Virus record (IMG/VR): IMGVR_UViG_2693429557_000011
Source: a virus
Taxonomy: Duplodnaviria > Heunggongvirae > Uroviricota > Caudoviricetes
Reading direction: 5' to 3' (one strand)
Length of the DNA: 29,524 nt
Shown in pieces: positions 2,975 to 27,661 of the stretch. The number at the start of each line of letters is the position of its first letter. The first letter of the stretch is position 1. A program made the translations under genes and the position numbers. The notes below the pieces were generated by a model. It ran no database searches. It had not been told where the DNA came from and worked only from the letters and a program-made list of their open reading frames with translations.

Positions 2975-2998
2975 AAGAAAAAAGGCCGCAGAGCGGCC
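2975..2998 (-). terminator. Rho-independent terminator read on the minus strand
   Basis: On the plus strand an A-run (aagaaaaaa) is followed by ggccgc-aga-gcggcc. On the minus strand this is a 6-bp GC stem with a 3-nt loop followed by a U-run. It lies about 110 bp downstream of the moron pair and just upstream of btuC. Confidence 0.6.
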
Positions 2999-3107: not shown

Positions 3108-3662
3108 TCAGCCAACAAATTTAGCAACAAATACAGCAACCGCCGCTGTGAAAATGGTTGTGCACACTGGCACAATAATGCCACTCCAACGCCACTTCGT
3201 ATTATCATCAACCTTGTCAAACCGCCGATTCATCTCATCCATAATCTTGTCAAAGCGTTTATCCATCGCTTCGGTAAGCTCACCCTTCAGGCTGTTAATG
3301 TCTGATTTGAGCTGCTCTTTCAGGTTAGCTGTATCAGATTTAAGCTCACCTTTCAGATTCGCAATATCGCATTCAAGATCACCTTTCAGATGTGCTATGT
3401 CTGCTTTGAGTTCACCTTTCACCTCACCAACATCGGCTTTAGTTGAGAGGTTTGTAGTGCGTTCAGCAAGCGTCGCAAGGTCGTTTCTTGTTAGCGATAA
3501 ATCACCTTCGAGCCGCTCAATTCGCCTTTCAAGTTTATCTGACATTCCGCCTCCACTACTGCCGCCATCGCCACCATGATAAAGCACATCACGCTCAGAA
3601 TGCGACACACTACCTGCTGAATTACCGAAAAGATTTCTTGCTACATTACCCATTATCACCAT
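3108..3662 (-). CDS. Coiled-coil, C-terminally membrane-anchored protein with five 11-residue repeats (184 aa as drawn; probably 145 aa from the internal ATG at 3545)
   Basis: The ORF contains five tandem 11-aa repeats (e.g. KGELKADIAHL, KGDLECDIANL, KGELKSDTANL), encoded by 33-bp DNA repeats. The C-terminus WRWSGIIVPVCTTIFTAAVAVFVAKFVG is a single hydrophobic helix. The internal ATG at 3545 has a GGAGG RBS (ggaggcggaATG), whereas the longer start overlaps the upstream gene by 17 nt. Its GC content is low relative to the phage backbone. Confidence 0.7.
   Translation of the reverse strand: MVIMGNVARNLFGNSAGSVSHSERDVLYHGGDGGSSGGGMSDKLERRIERLEGDLSLTRNDLATLAERTTNLSTKADVGEVKGELKADIAHLKGDLECDIANLKGELKSDTANLKEQLKSDINSLKGELTEAMDKRFDKIMDEMNRRFDKVDDNTKWRWSGIIVPVCTTIFTAAVAVFVAKFVG
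3284..3448. repeat. Five imperfect tandem 33-bp repeats (each starting ctttcag on the plus strand) inside the 3108-3662 ORF
   Basis: This is read directly from the sequence, e.g. ctttcaggttagctgtatcagatttaagctcac, ctttcagattcgcaatatcgcattcaagatcac and ctttcagatgtgctatgtctgctttgagttcac. They encode the 11-aa protein repeats. Confidence 0.85.
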
Positions 3663-4146
3663 CCTGCGCTTTGTCTTTCTCCAACCACTTCAGCACCGCA
3701 GACGTACGATAAAGGCTCAGGTAACCACAATTCAGGCAATGCAGCGTGTAATAAGTTTTGCGCATATCAGGTATGCTCTTAACATCACCCAAAAAAGCAT
3801 AAGATACATAATGCTTTATGTTCTCTTTAATTAACTCACTCTGTTCCTCCAGGGGTAGATTGTTAAAATTTTCTGGTTTCTTATTTTTATCCCAGCAAAG
3901 ATCCATACTTTCTGGAACAGATAATCGCGACGATCCACATGAAGGGCAGACACTGGAGACCCCCTTCTCAGACAAGAAACGGAAGAAGATTTCTGGCGTA
4001 ATCTCCATCAGCCGCTCTTTATGTTTTTTGACACGACTCATCGACTTCTTATTGATTTCATCAGCTTCTTCTTTGCATTTATCTTCTATATATTTCGATA
4101 GTAAATAGTCATATAACTCTTTTTTTGTAGGTTTTTTTATTTCCAT
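3646..4146 (-). CDS. Hypothetical zinc-binding protein (166 aa), very AT-rich
   Basis: Two CxxCG motifs (CPSCG and CLNCG) about 70 residues apart are compatible with a four-Cys zinc site, and the N-terminus is K/E-rich. The start ATG lies 2 nt after the int stop codon, with a GGGAGG RBS inside the int 3' end, so it is translationally coupled to int. GC is about 35 percent versus about 52 percent for the phage backbone. Confidence 0.75.
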   Translation of the reverse strand: MEIKKPTKKELYDYLLSKYIEDKCKEEADEINKKSMSRVKKHKERLMEITPEIFFRFLSEKGVSSVCPSCGSSRLSVPESMDLCWDKNKKPENFNNLPLEEQSELIKENIKHYVSYAFLGDVKSIPDMRKTYYTLHCLNCGYLSLYRTSAVLKWLEKDKAQDGDNG

Positions 4147-4148
4147 AG

Positions 4149-5126
4149 TTACATTCCTCCCAAGGGATTAAACCTCACCGCATCCTGCAAGTAATCCGGC
4201 GCAAGATGGGCATAAATCATCGTTGTCTGAATCTTTGCGTGCCCCAGAATTTTCTGGAGCGTCAGAATATTGCCGCCGTTCATCATGAAATGACTGGCGA
4301 AGGTGTGGCGCAGCGCATGAACAGCCTGGCCGTCAGGAACATCAGGTGCGACCGTTTTGATGACATCGCGAACCAATGAATAATCCAGCGTCGGAAACAC
4401 CAGTTTCCCGCCCCGTTTTTTGATCTTTTCAAACAGGCTTTCAGAAATAGGAACGGTACGGTTTTTGCTGTTCTTCGTTTTTGAAAAAGTGATTCGACAA
4501 TGAAGAACACGGCGCTGCTCCAGTGCCGCTACCTCGCCCCATCGCGCCCCGGTCGACAGAAGGATTTCGACGGCCAGCCGTTCATCGGGATTTTCAGCCA
4601 GTGCATCCAGCAACTGAACACATTCAGACTTACTCAGATATCCCATTTCACGCTCGTTAACCTTCATTCCTTTAAGGCCTTGAACGGGGTTATCGTTAAG
4701 AAAATGGCCGGATGAGATGAGTGCGGTAAACATCGCGCTTAACGCCCCAATCTCTCGATTTATGGTGCTGGGCTGTATCCCCTGCTCTATCCTGGACACA
4801 CGTAGCTCGGTGAGCATCGTTGTATTAAGTTTATGCACGCACGGGTCATCCATTGCCTCACTCAAGCGCAGCAATTTAAGGCGCGTGTTATGCCCTGACT
4901 TCATTAGCTGGCCGTGGTATTTCCACCACAAGTCAATAAGCACTGACAGCGGACGGCGATCAATGGAGTTTCCTTTCCACTCATTGTTATGCTGTTGCGC
5001 CAGCACCCACCGCTCATATAAAACTGCATCCGATTTCGTTTTAAATTTTTTGCGAATGCGTTTGCCTTTACGCCCCTCAGGACGCATGTCAAGAAGATAC
5101 CCTCCCGGAATTGATTTTATGCTCAT
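4149..5126 (-). CDS. int: P2-type tyrosine integrase (about 325 aa, starting at the internal Met MSIKSIPGGY)
   Basis: The sequence aligns along its length with my recall of P2 Int (MAIKKLDDGRYEVDIRPTGRNGKRIRRKF vs MSIKSIPGGYLLDMRPEGRKGKRIRKKF). The catalytic region carries ARWGE, HALRH and a Y in MIYAHL. The six-frame ORF extends to 5276, but the homology starts at 5126. Confidence 0.9.
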   Translation of the reverse strand: MSIKSIPGGYLLDMRPEGRKGKRIRKKFKTKSDAVLYERWVLAQQHNNEWKGNSIDRRPLSVLIDLWWKYHGQLMKSGHNTRLKLLRLSEAMDDPCVHKLNTTMLTELRVSRIEQGIQPSTINREIGALSAMFTALISSGHFLNDNPVQGLKGMKVNEREMGYLSKSECVQLLDALAENPDERLAVEILLSTGARWGEVAALEQRRVLHCRITFSKTKNSKNRTVPISESLFEKIKKRGGKLVFPTLDYSLVRDVIKTVAPDVPDGQAVHALRHTFASHFMMNGGNILTLQKILGHAKIQTTMIYAHLAPDYLQDAVRFNPLGGM

Positions 5127-5175: not shown

Positions 5176-5487
5176 TTAGCCGGGCTGTGTGCCAGTCTTG
5201 CGGGATTTTTGAGAAGACGATGTGTTTTCTGGCCCATCAGGGGAGAGAGAAGGACTGATCTGCCCAGCAGCCTCATTTGTTTCGTTACTCATCAACCACG
5301 TAGTGTATTTTTTAAATTCCGGGTGCATTGTGATTTTCAGTAAAACCTCCGTTCCCACACCTCGAATACCAGTCTCGTATTGCTTAACCGTACCAACCGC
5401 AATACCTATTGAATCCGCGAACTTTGCCTGACTAAGCCCCTCAGATTCTCGAATTGCTTTTAGCTTCTTTGATATCTCTATTGACAT
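5176..5487 (-). CDS. C: P2 C-type immunity repressor (103 aa, start MSIEISKK)
   Basis: An HTH_XRE-like N-terminus is present, and the C-terminal part (HPEFKKYTTWLMSNE..AGQISPSL) resembles P2 C as recalled (QFTKYTLWFMTNQ..SGQIAPAL). It sits directly upstream of int on the same strand, divergent from cox. Confidence 0.8.
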   Translation of the reverse strand: MSIEISKKLKAIRESEGLSQAKFADSIGIAVGTVKQYETGIRGVGTEVLLKITMHPEFKKYTTWLMSNETNEAAGQISPSLSPDGPENTSSSQKSRKTGTQPG

Positions 5488-10820: not shown

Positions 10821-11780
10821 ATGAAAATTTGTATCGACGACGGCTCCACCAACATCAAGCTGGCATGGACTGAGAACGGCGAACGCCGCAACGCCATCAG
10901 CCCGAACAGCTTCAAGTCGGAATGGTCTGCGCCGTTCGGTGGCATGCAGCCCGCGAACTACATGCTTGATGGCGTGCGCTATGGTTTTGATCCGGTCAGC
11001 GATCGCTTTGTCCAGACAACCGACACGCAATACCAGTACAGCGATGTAAATGTCATTGCCATTCATCACGCGCTGGTCAAATCAGGCATCACGCCACAGG
11101 AGGTGGATGTGGTTGTCACCCTGCCACTGAGCGAGTATTTCGACACAAACGCACAGCCGGACATGGCCAACATCAACCGCAAAAAAGCGAACGTTATGCG
11201 CCCGGTGGAGTACCAGAACGGCGAAGCATTCACTATCCGTAACGTGCGGGTTATGCCTGAATCCATTCCGGCTGGCTTTAAGGCACTGGCTGACATGAGT
11301 CCGTTTGAATCCCTGCTGATTGTGGATTTGGGCGGAACCACGCTGGATGTGGCAAAGGTTCAGGGGCAACTGGCAGGTATCAGCCAGGTGTTTTGCGATC
11401 CACACGTAGGCGTTTCTCTGATGGCCGATGCCGTACTGTCGGTGATGGCCACTAACGGTATGCGCACCAGTCACCACATCGCCAATACCATTATCGAACA
11501 TCGCCATGATGAAGCCTGGCTGCGCCAGCACATCCACAATGACGCGCATTACGCCAGCCTGATGGCGGTTATTCGTGAAAAGGAAGAAACACTGAAACAA
11601 CGCGTGATCCGCGCGCTGGCGGGTTTTTCGGGTTACGGGCGGGTGATGGTTGTCGGTGGAGGGGCGGAGATTGTGGCACCCGCTATCCGCGAAGCCTGCG
11701 GAGTTAATGCGACTTTCATCGCGGACGGGGTGCCACAGTTTGCTCTGGTTAATGGGCTGTACGCAATGGACAAGGAGTAA
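10821..11780 (+). CDS. parM: ParM/StbA-family actin-like segregation ATPase (319 aa)
   Basis: The N-terminus MKICIDDGSTNIKLAW matches my recall of the plasmid R1 ParM (StbA) N-terminus MLVFIDDGSTNIKLQW. Further actin-fold motifs LIVDLGGTTLDV and VMVVGGGAEIV are present, and the length matches ParM (~320 aa). Confidence 0.85.
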   Translation: MKICIDDGSTNIKLAWTENGERRNAISPNSFKSEWSAPFGGMQPANYMLDGVRYGFDPVSDRFVQTTDTQYQYSDVNVIAIHHALVKSGITPQEVDVVVTLPLSEYFDTNAQPDMANINRKKANVMRPVEYQNGEAFTIRNVRVMPESIPAGFKALADMSPFESLLIVDLGGTTLDVAKVQGQLAGISQVFCDPHVGVSLMADAVLSVMATNGMRTSHHIANTIIEHRHDEAWLRQHIHNDAHYASLMAVIREKEETLKQRVIRALAGFSGYGRVMVVGGGAEIVAPAIREACGVNATFIADGVPQFALVNGLYAMDKE

Positions 11781-11784
11781 ACCA

Positions 11785-12096
11785 ATGACGACACCAACCA
11801 GACGGATAAGTTTCTATCTGAAGCCTGCGGCCGTCAAGAACGAAAGCGAAGCATGCGCCTGGCTGGGCAGCCTTACACCAGAAGCCCGCAAAAGCGGCCA
11901 ACGCGTGGCTTTTCTGGCCGGGCTGGCACTTCTGAAAATGAATCCAGCAGAGGCTTACCGACTGGCTGCATGGGCTGACGATGAGGCGTTATCGGTGACA
12001 CAAACCAGGACAGAACGCCCCGTGCCACAGCCAGTACCAACCGCACAGATAACCAGTCAGATAGCAGGGAATATCCGGGCATTATTTCCTGAATGA
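11785..12096 (+). CDS. parR: ParR-like centromere-binding adaptor (103 aa, start MTTPTRRISF)
   Basis: It lies 4 nt after the parM stop with an AAGGAG RBS. Segments RISFYLKP, RVAFLAGLALLKMNP and IRALFPE resemble R1 ParR as recalled (RTIAFKLNP, RAALTAGLALYRQDP, ILRSLFPKE), and the gene order parM-parR matches R1. Confidence 0.65.
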   Translation: MTTPTRRISFYLKPAAVKNESEACAWLGSLTPEARKSGQRVAFLAGLALLKMNPAEAYRLAAWADDEALSVTQTRTERPVPQPVPTAQITSQIAGNIRALFPE

Positions 12097-12156
12097 CGAA
12101 TTTGACGGCTTTTAATTTTATCGGGGTGCACTGTCGCCCCGCACGAGGAAAACACG

Positions 12157-12681
12157 ATGAAAAAATACGAATACATGCTAATGAAAGAAGCACTGCGGGC
12201 TGGTCTGGCTCCCTGTCCTGTATCCGTAGAAGCTGTTGTTGGGAACACGATTTTCCGAACGCTGCGAAATCGCGTATCCGTGAAGATGGTTCACCAACCA
12301 CCCAAATCTACCAGCATGATCTATCTGCCGCTGCCCGAGGCTATCAAACTTATGCGTTCGCTGAAATTTGCGATTTGGATGCAGACACAAATCAACAAAG
12401 CGGTGCAAAACACCTTCGTTAAGAGACTAATACCGGAGCTTGCTGCCAGATGTGCAAAATGTACCAGACCCGCACTTCAATTTGATCTGTCATTGATTCA
12501 ACAAGCTACGGAGGCAGAACTGTACCGCCTGTCACCTATCCGTGATGCTCACACGGAAGCATCAGAAATGTTCCGGCTCATGTTTCAATTTAATTTTGCC
12601 GTTCGACGCACACGCGTTCAGGTCAATCGCATGATGCAGGAGCAGGAAGAGTTAACACAGTACAAAGGGGGCAGCCAGTGA
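12157..12681 (+). CDS. Hypothetical protein (174 aa), first gene of the hotspot cargo cassette
   Basis: The ORF has a GAGGA RBS. It is a basic protein with no motif I recognise. Its stop overlaps the next start (GTGA). Confidence 0.6.
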   Translation: MKKYEYMLMKEALRAGLAPCPVSVEAVVGNTIFRTLRNRVSVKMVHQPPKSTSMIYLPLPEAIKLMRSLKFAIWMQTQINKAVQNTFVKRLIPELAARCAKCTRPALQFDLSLIQQATEAELYRLSPIRDAHTEASEMFRLMFQFNFAVRRTRVQVNRMMQEQEELTQYKGGSQ

Positions 12682-12917
12682 GTAATTCAGCACGACTACA
12701 GCTTGGTTTTTCACCGCTATCAAAAACCATCGTATTGGCAAAAATGCGTGACTTAGGAGACGGAACAAAACGCCGCGTAGGAAATGATCGCGGTCGCGAT
12801 GTAACCAACGAGGCCGCTCAACTCGTTTGGCATCTAGTCATGGCAGAAGGCGGTGAAATTAATTGGGAGCTGGATGATGGTTCTCGTATGATTTTGAGGG
12901 CCGAGAAGAGTAAATAG
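12678..12917 (+). CDS. Hypothetical protein (79 aa), translationally coupled to the 174-aa gene
   Basis: A GTG start overlaps the upstream TGA stop. The protein is acidic and contains a W-rich segment EAAQLVWHLVMAEGGEINWELDDGS. Confidence 0.5.
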   Translation: MSNSARLQLGFSPLSKTIVLAKMRDLGDGTKRRVGNDRGRDVTNEAAQLVWHLVMAEGGEINWELDDGSRMILRAEKSK

Positions 12918-27029: not shown

Positions 27030-27661
27030 ATGCGTAAAGTTTGTGCAGCCATTTTGTCCGCAGCCATTTGCCTGGCCGTATCCGGTGCGCCTGCATGGGC
27101 GTCTGAACATCAGTCCACACTGAGCGCGGGGTATCTTCATGCCCGTACGAACGCTCCCGGCAGCGATAATCTGAACGGGATTAACGTGAAATACCGTTAT
27201 GAGTTTACGGACGCGCTGGGGCTGNNNNNNNNNNNNNNNNNNNNNNNNNNNNNNNNNNNNNNNNNNNNNNNNNNNNNNNNNNNNNNNNNNNNNNNNNNNN
27301 NNNNTACAGCGATACCCGCTGGCATGAAGATTCCGTGCGTAACCGCTGGTTCAGCGTGATGGCGGGGCCGTCTGTACGCGTGAATGAATGGTTCAGCGCG
27401 TATGCGATGGTGGGTGTGGCTTACAGCCGTGTGTCGACTTTCTCCGGGGATTATCTCCGCGTAACTGACAACAAGGGGAAAACGCACGATGTGCTGACCG
27501 GAAGTGATGACGGTCGCCACAGCAACACGTCTCTGGCGTGGGGGGCTGGCGTGCAGTTTAACCCGACCGAATCCGTGACCATTGACCTTGCTTATGAAGG
27601 TTCCGGTAGTGGTGACTGGCGAACGGATGCATTTATTGTTGGTATCGGATACCGTATCTGA
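27030..27661 (+). CDS. lom: Lom-family outer-membrane beta-barrel protein (Ail/OmpX/PagC family), interrupted by an 80-N gap
   Basis: MRKVCAAILSAAICLAVSGAPAWASEHQSTLSAGYLHARTNAPGSDNLNGINVKYRYEFTD on one side and ...RWFSVMAGPSVRVNEWFSAYAMVGVAYSRVSTF...GIGYRI on the other are near-identical to lambda Lom as recalled. The apparent frame change is caused by the N-run at 27225-27304. Confidence 0.85.
27225..27304. other. Assembly gap (80 N) inside lom
   Basis: The run of n characters is seen directly. Confidence 0.99.

Follow-up and report, generated by a model that had tools for sequence, protein, structure and literature searches.

An exchangeable zinc-ribbon gene and its tail-anchored coiled-coil partner as a candidate phage-exclusion module of P2-like Escherichia coli prophages

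The λ RexA/RexB pair, one of the described counterparts of the locus analysed here, consists of two co-oriented genes directly downstream of the prophage repressor that encode a cytoplasmic and a membrane component, RexB being polytopic in the membrane. Hotspots of P2 and P4 have yielded defence systems of two genes whose effectors are transmembrane proteins (Rousset et al. 2022, PMC9122126), and in P2 the interval between int and att is documented as a minor hotspot for defence genes (PMC13586616). Two protein families bear on the membrane component: XhlA (PF10779), a small, membrane-associated lysis protein of the Bacillus PBSX/SPβ type, and the DUF1640 or CCDC90-like proteins (PF07798; MCUR1/CCDC90B relatives), in which a β-layer motif, [aliphatic]-A/S-T-K-x-[DE] (PMC4786415), leads into a coiled-coil stalk that ends in a transmembrane helix at the C-terminus.

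The present locus belongs to a P2/186-like E. coli prophage and was analysed within a window of 29,524 nucleotides, the whole stretch of DNA under study. It occupies the slot between int and attL, adjoining btuC, and comprises the following features.

5176-5487, minus strand: CI-like HTH repressor gene (HTH_3, 2e-9), upstream of int in the same orientation and probably marking the lysogenic operon
4149-5126, minus strand: P2/186-like tyrosine integrase gene, int (Int_N 2e-28, Phage_integrase 6e-20, RefSeq), immediately upstream of ORF166 in the same orientation
4156-4160, minus strand: ribosome-binding site GGAGG of ORF166 read from the sequence, within the 3' end of int, 9 nt upstream of the start
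3646-4146, minus strand: ORF166, zinc-ribbon-like protein gene, type i allele (166 aa; ORF call and phrog_4293 match)
3934-3948, minus strand: first knuckle of ORF166, CPSCG, residues 67-71, with C67 and C70 invariant
3724-3738, minus strand: second knuckle, CLNCG, residues 137-141, at a β-hairpin turn with H136 just before it
3108-3653, minus strand: partner gene for a tail-anchored coiled-coil membrane protein, DUF1640/CCDC90-like (181 aa from the ATG at 3653)
3576-3653, minus strand: partner N-terminal peptide, residues 1-26, co-varying with zinc-ribbon type; putative docking element
3546-3575, minus strand: Gly-rich linker GGDGGSSGGG, residues 27-36; inter-module exchange point
3222-3419, minus strand: six 11-residue segments, residues 79-144, from the repeat register and a 33-bp tandem repeat
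3117-3185, minus strand: C-terminal transmembrane anchor, approximately residues 157-179, with DDNTKW ahead of it and just 2-4 residues after it
2984-2998, minus strand: terminator-like hairpin, GGCCGCTCTGCGGCC then a T-run, at the prophage/host junction on the attL side

Matches to the window were found in all 5,426 E. coli genomes; host homology stops at approximately position 2998, and the prophage-free E. coli among the matches listed align only up to 2998. A gap of 2 nt separates the int stop codon from the ATG of ORF166, a similarly tight spacing being found at four other loci (L002, L005, L012 and L014), and since no terminator lies between them ORF166 is presumably co-transcribed with int. 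The overlap of the partner ATG with the ORF166 stop codon (ATGGGTAATG) suggests translational coupling. This arrangement agrees with a prior, sequence-only reading of the same DNA, in which ORF166 was described as the upstream member of an int-linked pair. A second in-frame ATG for the partner is present at 3662, and RefSeq places the start later, at MSDKLERR (145 aa). In some RefSeq genomes the zinc-ribbon gene is left unannotated and the N-terminus of the partner is shortened.

The GC content of ORF166 is 38.5% against a window value of 53.3%, and nowhere in the window is GC lower than in its region, in line with the AT-richness that had been remarked upon. The rare codons claimed alongside it are not borne out, as codons rare in E. 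coli make up 6.0% of ORF166, within the 4.6-10.7% of neighbouring genes. Among alleles of its own type, ORF166 evolves under purifying selection, with a pN/pS of 0-0.19 in 11 comparisons and of 0.08-0.19 in every comparison containing a nonsynonymous change. This selection, together with its conservation, rules out a chance-ORF or pseudogene reading. ORF166 is thus a real, conserved, uncharacterised prophage gene, and searches by accession, family and function found no literature, including any phenotype, on it or its partner.

The two motifs read directly from the sequence, CPSCG and CLNCG, supply the most conserved residues of the protein: across an alignment of 83 diverse homologues, C67, C70, C137 and C140 are the sole invariant columns, G141 is conserved in at least 90%, and the other cysteines of ORF166 (C24 and C84) are not conserved. 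An AlphaFold (AF2) model with a pLDDT of 82.8 over the full length and 94.2 over the core places a helix at residues 8-46, an α/β zinc-ribbon-like core at 47-147 and a C-terminal helix at 148-163. The first helix is K/E-rich as proposed, with 12 K and 7 E among residues 1-46, which are 52% charged. In the model, the turn that links strand 131-137 to strand 143-147 carries C137 and C140, and C67 and C70 lie in a loop ahead of strand 75-83. ORF166 thus has the hallmarks of a zinc ribbon, namely two CxxC knuckles giving four cysteines that are kept across the 83 homologues, and knuckles modelled at β-hairpin turns. The invariant cysteines and the confident model make the single predicted four-Cys zinc site of the sequence-only reading well supported.

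ORF166 matches phrog_4293, annotated as of unknown function, at E=8.1e-23, with residues 39-163 aligned to profile positions 4-121 of 124. Its best score against Pfam zinc-ribbon families was 17.3 bits versus a 23-bit cut-off (e.g. Zn_ribbon_13, PF09855), and only 1-2 of the 83 family members matched any zinc-ribbon family at E<1e-3. PDB sequence searches with ORF166 and with the partner gave no match, nor did tblastn of ORF166 against a phage collection, in which shorter family members matched SPN3UB-like phages and Klebsiella and Enterobacter phages; a scan of genome contigs with one of the alignments returned only two loci. The protein had been put forward as a candidate sensor or nucleic-acid-binding component. 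The first role is plausible for the hypervariable member of a pair; the second is unsupported by any match, no nucleic-acid-binding domain having been detected in ORF166 using Pfam, and the zinc-ribbon knuckle matches that appeared being all sub-threshold.

The partner has the DUF1640-like order of features, with a β-layer-like motif (L-S-T-K-A-D, residues 69-74) ahead of the 11-residue repeats of its coiled-coil stalk and a transmembrane helix at its C-terminus, where the 19-residue Kyte-Doolittle maximum of 2.43 is reached at residue 159. The first four segments are clear repeat copies (KGELKADIAHL, KGDLECDIANL, KGELKSDTANL and KEQLKSDINSL), encoded in part by a 33-bp tandem repeat of 3.2 copies at 3317-3421, and copy number varies among partner alleles, giving proteins of 192, 181, 170, 159 and 148 aa. 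The C-terminal anchor is also present in other partners sampled and in intact viral-contig pairs (L091 is truncated), and in the allele of locus L096 the linker is expanded to GGDGGDGGDGGDGGSSGGG. The Pfam CCDC90-like score of the partner is 24.1 bits, below the 33.5-bit cut-off; a protein 97% identical to it (P0105) carries a precomputed PF07798 match, and RefSeq gives the partner the name DUF1640/CCDC90.

Comparison of prophages sharing nearly the same integrase indicates that ORF166 belongs to an exchangeable cassette. Between the window and locus L005, int is ~100% identical and the partner body 98-100% identical, but ORF166 only 53-72% at the nucleotide level. Prophages whose int is at least 98% identical have no fewer than three zinc-ribbon types in complete genomes, all very different, and a fourth on a metagenomic contig, and some carry an unrelated gene in the slot, as do ~55% of an evenly spaced sample of 60 prophages sharing this int. 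Low GC and the swapping of cassettes between near-identical-int prophages make it well supported that ORF166 is a laterally exchanged moron, as the sequence-only reading had supposed. The identity of the partner N-peptide follows that of the zinc-ribbon protein and not that of the partner's own body: on average it is 71% where partner bodies differ, and 32% where different zinc-ribbon proteins accompany identical bodies. Recombination, or exchange, between the modules takes place at the Gly-rich linker. Mere adjacency, combined with a recombination-prone repeat of Gly codons, could also cause the co-inheritance of N-peptide and zinc-ribbon type.

The association of the two genes is close to constant. 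A partner of the same architecture was present at all sampled loci, overlapping or closely trailing the zinc-ribbon gene wherever an intact copy of the latter exists, and among 80 loci on viral contigs both genes were intact in 76, so that loss of the ORF with the partner persisting alone, an outcome that, like unconserved cysteines, would have counted against the sequence-only reading, is rare (at locus L104 the zinc-ribbon gene is truncated and the partner intact). In P2-like prophages the pair lies directly downstream of int. At L111 (lambdoid, with the order cro<- ->cI->ZnR->partner), L016 and L110 it lies directly downstream of a cI-type or S24 repressor, a RexAB-type location in the repressor operon, and in SPN3UB it is found beside arc/ant; the window copy follows cI and int, with which it is probably co-transcribed. 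The zinc-ribbon family is phage-restricted and carried by temperate phages only, searches of 72,556 plasmids having returned 0 and 1 matches. Of the complete genomes of E. coli, ~2% carry the pair, and the STEC lineages O26, O103, O145 and O157 are among the carriers.

We tentatively propose, at somewhat less than an even chance, that the pair is a lysogen-expressed phage-exclusion module in which an exchangeable specificity subunit docks on a membrane effector. ORF166 would be the cytoplasmic, exchangeable subunit of this two-gene accessory module, with the partner N-peptide as its docking site, so that the complex would hang under the inner membrane. Like λ rexAB, the pair would be expressed during lysogeny, here as part of the operon of repressor and integrase, and would act in phage exclusion or abortive infection: the hypervariable zinc-ribbon subunit may recognise some part of an invading phage, upon which the tail-anchored stalk protein would perturb the membrane. 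Obligatory pairing, position in the int-att hotspot, zinc-ribbon hypervariability, modularity, phage restriction, the weak XhlA and holin similarity of a partner homologue and purifying selection within allele types all lean towards exclusion; a variable cassette in a lysogenic operon would suit other moron functions too. A more specific version, which we regard as doubtful, is a new class of prophage immunity in which interchangeable zinc-ribbon heads of a new fold sit on the Gly-linked peptide of a stalk, the head sensing the phage and the stalk disrupting the membrane in an XhlA- or holin-like manner. The stalk could then form a trimer, as the analogy to β-layer proteins of the DUF1640 family suggests, and gain or loss of 11-residue repeats might tune stalk length and the distance of the head beneath the inner membrane. 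In PADLOC-DB v2.0.0 no defence model is homologous to ORF166 (best E=0.0054) and the partner gives coiled-coil-type matches to LmuB and ZorA only; three of the 83 zinc-ribbon family members match the candidate PDC-S64 at 2.6e-4.

Of the alternatives, lysogenic conversion fares best, though we consider it unlikely. The pair would alter host envelope or membrane physiology to the benefit of the lysogen (stress tolerance, colonisation) with no anti-phage role, the zinc-ribbon protein being a subunit that regulates or chaperones the tail-anchored membrane protein. A lysogenic-operon position and a tail-anchored coiled-coil product would suit such a function, as would the occurrence of DUF1640/CCDC90 relatives with other N-termini commonly outside phages and the ability of the slot to hold an unrelated small gene instead. 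The confinement of the zinc-ribbon family to temperate phages and its near absence from plasmids are, however, harder to accommodate, and arms-race genes, more often than housekeeping-like conversion genes, show such extreme allele replacement in one subunit of prophages that are identical elsewhere.

A role in the phage's own life cycle, either as an XhlA-like lysis-timing accessory or as a membrane-tethered modulator of lysis-lysogeny or induction, is less likely still. It would explain the constant place of the pair beside immunity genes (cI, int, arc/ant), and a partner homologue, SPN3UB gp25, matches XhlA at E=7.7e-6 (26.4 bits, below the 34.7 threshold) and the PHROG 'holin' family 689 at E=1.8e-6. 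The window partner itself has weak PHROG matches (phrog_689, E=0.004; phrog_1193, E=0.023), and XhlA is absent among the Pfam families listed for it (25 of 26). Against this role, the pair of P2-like phages lies in the lysogenic and not the late lysis transcription unit, and it is dispensable, because an unrelated gene fills the slot in more than half of the sampled prophages. Zinc-ribbon type also varies independently of int and of the repressor allele, one such allele (WP_000094527.1) being found with zinc-ribbon types iii and iv and with unrelated cargo; because type does not track repressor allele, ORF166 is also unlikely to be a regulator matched to its own repressor.

A toxin-antitoxin-like addiction pair, with the membrane partner as toxin and the upstream zinc-ribbon protein as antitoxin stabilising the prophage (or effecting abortive infection), is improbable and the weakest of these alternatives: two small, co-oriented genes with overlapping stop and start form the canonical type II layout, the partner is related to holin/XhlA-like proteins and direct binding via the N-peptide is plausible, but ORF166 has no recognisable domain for DNA binding or autoregulation, its family lacks the wide plasmid and chromosome spread of antitoxins and is virtually missing from plasmids, where addiction modules abound, and loci such as L104 would be lethal under a strict pair.

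The pair is a good candidate for a new phage-exclusion module. If it does exclude phages, it would represent a defence family missed by current tools (PADLOC, Pfam), with a sensor of new zinc-binding fold and an unusually simple, modular architecture of head, docking peptide, stalk and anchor. Heads have been swapped in nature between prophages that are identical in other respects, which provides a ready-made specificity experiment. Given its presence in ~2% of complete genomes, STEC included, and in a rexAB-equivalent slot (one lambdoid example, L111), the pair may influence the phage susceptibility of clinically relevant strains. It also exposes systematic annotation gaps, in the form of missed zinc-ribbon genes and partner N-termini that are cut off.

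Set against known systems, the ORF166 family shares with zinc-ribbon or rubredoxin-knuckle proteins of the CPxCG type two CxxC(G) knuckles ~45-70 residues apart, which in ORF166 precede a β-strand or sit at a β-hairpin turn. The partner resembles DUF1640 proteins in its β-layer-type motif, repeat-rich stalk and C-terminal transmembrane helix, and ELKxDIANL repeats are common to it and to generic members; it differs in falling below the Pfam cut-off, in its own N-terminal peptide and Gly-rich linker, and in its obligatory pairing with a zinc-ribbon gene. Like XhlA it is small, with the coiled coil towards the N-terminus and, behind a K-W motif, a transmembrane helix at the C-terminus, whereas matches of the partner family are under the curated threshold, its gene lies outside any lysis cassette, and it has a zinc-ribbon companion and a Gly-linked N-peptide. 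Like the P2/P4 hotspot systems (PMC9122126), the pair is prophage-borne, fills a slot whose cargo varies and joins a cytoplasmic to a membrane protein, but it is unrelated in sequence to all of them (PADLOC). No homology to RexA or RexB was found in Pfam, PHROGs, NCBIfam or PADLOC; the cytoplasmic subunit is a small four-Cys zinc-ribbon protein and its partner, unlike RexB, a single-pass tail-anchored coiled coil. The parallel with λ RexA/RexB lies instead in organisation, with a co-oriented pair directly downstream of the prophage repressor at L111 that joins a cytoplasmic to a membrane component and, by analogy, may exclude other phages through the membrane.

The analysed DNA opens with the host genes nlpC-btuD-btuE-btuC, next to which lies a P2/186-like prophage whose genes include a cI-like repressor, int and a replication endonuclease (gpA), together with further ORFs that, judged by size, resemble portal, terminase and tail genes. 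E. coli O26 RM8426 is 100% identical to the window over the 2.3 kb tested. A junction query matched all 5,426 of 5,426 complete E. coli genomes and, among those listed, the alignment of prophage-free genomes stops at window position 2998. As both ORF166, the zinc-ribbon-like protein under study, and its partner gene lie between int and this junction, they are prophage cargo, and the moron label of the sequence-only reading was appropriate. The relevant features are:

2984-2998, minus strand, terminator-like hairpin at the host/prophage junction
3222-3419, 11-residue repeat region of the coiled coil in the window partner gene
3646-4146, minus strand, ORF166, 166 aa, with CPSCG at residues 67-71 and CLNCG at residues 137-141

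Both motifs are read directly in the sequence, as described earlier. ORF166 starts 2 nt past the int stop codon, with a GGAGG 9 nt 5' of its start codon, and its stop codon is overlapped by the partner ATG (ATGGGTAATG), confirming it as the upstream member of an int-linked pair. The gene is AT-rich as claimed (38.5% GC versus 53.3% for the window); the accompanying claim of rare codons was wrong, their frequency (6.0%) falling inside the range of neighbouring genes. Within its own allele type, pN/pS was 0-0.19 (11 comparisons), or 0.08-0.19 in comparisons with any nonsynonymous change, and ORF166 is thus under purifying selection.

No significant family was found for ORF166 in Pfam, NCBIfam or PADLOC, and the sole real family match across these and PHROG was to PHROG 4293 (E=8e-23), annotated as function unknown. 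A word-indexed search returned 18 relatives, with E. coli, Shigella, Salmonella and Providencia as named sources. When 1.84 billion representatives were searched exhaustively with a profile, no more than 90 turned up, and many of these are shorter proteins (100-135 aa) devoid of the N-terminal helix. Across 83 full-length members (mean column identity 21%), C67, C70, C137 and C140 are the only invariant columns, with G141 and W154 following at 90% conservation or more; the proposal of a single four-Cys site bridging the protein is therefore well supported. AlphaFold modelled the full-length protein with a pLDDT of 82.8 and the core (residues 47-166, 83-sequence alignment) with a pLDDT of 94.2 and pTM of 0.80. 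The expected K/E-rich helix is borne out, the first 46 residues (12 K and 7 E, 52% charged) being predicted helical. The modelled core, a zinc-ribbon-like α/β unit, opens with a helix, after which the first CxxC occupies a loop that runs into a β-strand; the insert that follows is variable, a β-hairpin carries the second CxxC at its turn, and another helix closes the C-terminus. The evidence points strongly to zinc binding, and the putative zinc-binding domain has no solved structural relative.

Every examined locus with an intact zinc-ribbon gene has a partner gene after it, and 76 of 80 IMG/VR loci carry an intact pair. The partner start overlaps or abuts the zinc-ribbon stop in most loci, lying up to ~95 nt past it in a few gene calls; in the window, 3653 is taken as the start and the in-frame ATG at 3662 as a possible alternative. 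All partners share one layout: an N-terminal peptide of 15-30 residues, a Gly-rich linker (GGDGGSSGGG in the window, expanded to GGDGGDGGDGGDGG in the L096 allele), a coiled coil opening with an L-E-x-R-V-E-x-L-E segment, and a transmembrane helix near the C-terminus, beyond which most loci have no more than ~17 residues (2-4 in the window; locus L016 has ~35). Most carry a β-layer-type motif (L-S-T-K-A-D in the window) known from DUF1640 (PMC4786415), and a K-W motif is usual; the window partner fell below threshold for Pfam CCDC90-like. Its stalk consists of 11-residue repeats (e.g. KGELKADIAHL, KGDLECDIANL), of which a 33-bp tandem repeat at 3317-3421 is the DNA trace, and close alleles (P0105-P0131) differ by whole repeats (192, 181, 170, 159 and 148 aa). 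In RefSeq/PGAP the annotated partner begins at an internal Met and so lacks the N-peptide and Gly linker (window 3546-3653), both of which are conserved. In some genomes (L022 ~2440-2850 and L024; NZ_CP059003.1 and NZ_CP038389.1) the 132-135-aa zinc-ribbon gene carries no annotation at all. Surveys that rely on annotation therefore under-count the family.

Comparison of the window with locus L005 reveals exchange of one subunit: int is ~100% identical and the partner 98-100% identical from the Gly linker onward, with ORF166 at only 53-72% nucleotide and 54% protein identity. This int occurs in ~299 complete E. coli genomes, of which an evenly spaced sample of 60 was scored for the contents of the int-attL slot:

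Unrelated 131-aa gene, 33 of 60
120-aa zinc-ribbon type with its own partner, 19 of 60
Window zinc-ribbon type, 5 of 60 (23 genomes overall)
132-135-aa zinc-ribbon type, 3 of 60

The commonest alternative cargo, which stands alone in the slot, encodes the hypothetical protein WP_000416308.1 (L106 3082-3477 in E. coli HUSEC2011; also in E2348/69 and O111:H8 strains). Ribbon type is independent of the repressor allele, WP_000094527.1 occurring with two ribbon types and with unrelated cargo.

The partner N-peptide varies together with the zinc-ribbon type. Among 57 distinct pairs (1,596 comparisons), N-peptide identity averages 71% where ribbons are at least 85% but partner bodies <40% identical, and only 32% where bodies are at least 85% but ribbons <60% identical; none of the 1,596 comparisons combined ribbon identity of at least 85% with N-peptide identity <50%. 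N-peptide identity tracks the ribbon protein, so ribbon gene and N-peptide together make up the unit that is exchanged; stalk and anchor form the constant unit, with the Gly linker as the joint. This pattern fits a putative docking site for the ribbon protein in the N-peptide. Alternatively, physical adjacency and a recombination-prone Gly-codon repeat may account for the co-variation without docking.

The pair lies directly 3' of int in P2-like prophages of Salmonella and of other hosts, and adjoins ogr at the opposite prophage end in Providencia. It directly follows an S24-type repressor in L016, lies downstream of one in L110, and occupies a tail-region locus in a Klebsiella phage. The Salmonella siphovirus SPN3UB carries a short form:

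NC_019545.1 4998-5667 (L018), gp24 and gp25, short-form zinc-ribbon and partner

These genes belong to a moron island flanked by the genes for the major tail protein and the tape measure, with arc-like regulators and the anti-repressor gene ant as neighbours. The same zinc-ribbon allele occurs with three different partner bodies (100, 125 and 96 aa) in related viral contigs.

Other features were observed in the window. Between gpA and portal, the main cargo hotspot of P2 holds ParM (10821-11780, plus strand; StbA_N 3e-82 and ParM C-terminal domain) paired with a StbB-like 'plasmid stability' gene (11650-12096, plus strand), which suggests a plasmid-type partition module within an integrated P2-like prophage; small ORFs 3' of it (12093-12917, one with DUF7446) had no PADLOC match. 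A low-GC patch (46-50%) in the tail region holds a 109-aa ORF (27030-27359, plus strand) matching the Ail/Lom outer-membrane protein profile (1.5e-35) over only positions 1-66 of 199, suggesting a lom-like gene that has been truncated or frameshifted.

ORF166 and its partner form a genuine, uncharacterised two-gene module of phages that has been shuffled widely. The module deserves experimental work as a candidate, but it is not an established novelty. Our leading interpretation, held at slightly less than even confidence, is a lysogen-expressed module against other phages, in which the zinc-ribbon protein would be the specificity subunit and the tail-anchored membrane protein the effector. 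This is argued from its place in the presumed repressor/integrase transcription unit and in a minor P2 defence hotspot interval (PMC13586616), its restriction to temperate phages, the replacement of one subunit among otherwise identical prophages, its independence of the prophage's own immunity type, and the coupling of a small cytoplasmic protein to a tail-anchored XhlA/holin-like membrane protein. Of the roles raised by the sequence-only reading, a sensor is plausible and nucleic-acid binding unsupported. A conversion function other than defence is an unlikely alternative. A function for the phage itself, in lysis or in lysis-lysogeny control, is somewhat less probable again; the shorter partner homologue SPN3UB gp25 matches the PHROG 'holin' family, with a sub-threshold XhlA match. 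Least probable is a toxin-antitoxin-like addiction module, the zinc-ribbon family being all but missing from plasmids (72,556 searched). A small share of the probability is given to none of these readings. For the proposed anti-phage module, the functional analogue would be λ RexAB, to which the pair is unrelated; in the lambdoid prophage L111 the pair directly follows the repressor (cro in one direction; cI, zinc-ribbon gene and partner in the other), a position equivalent to that of λ rexAB.
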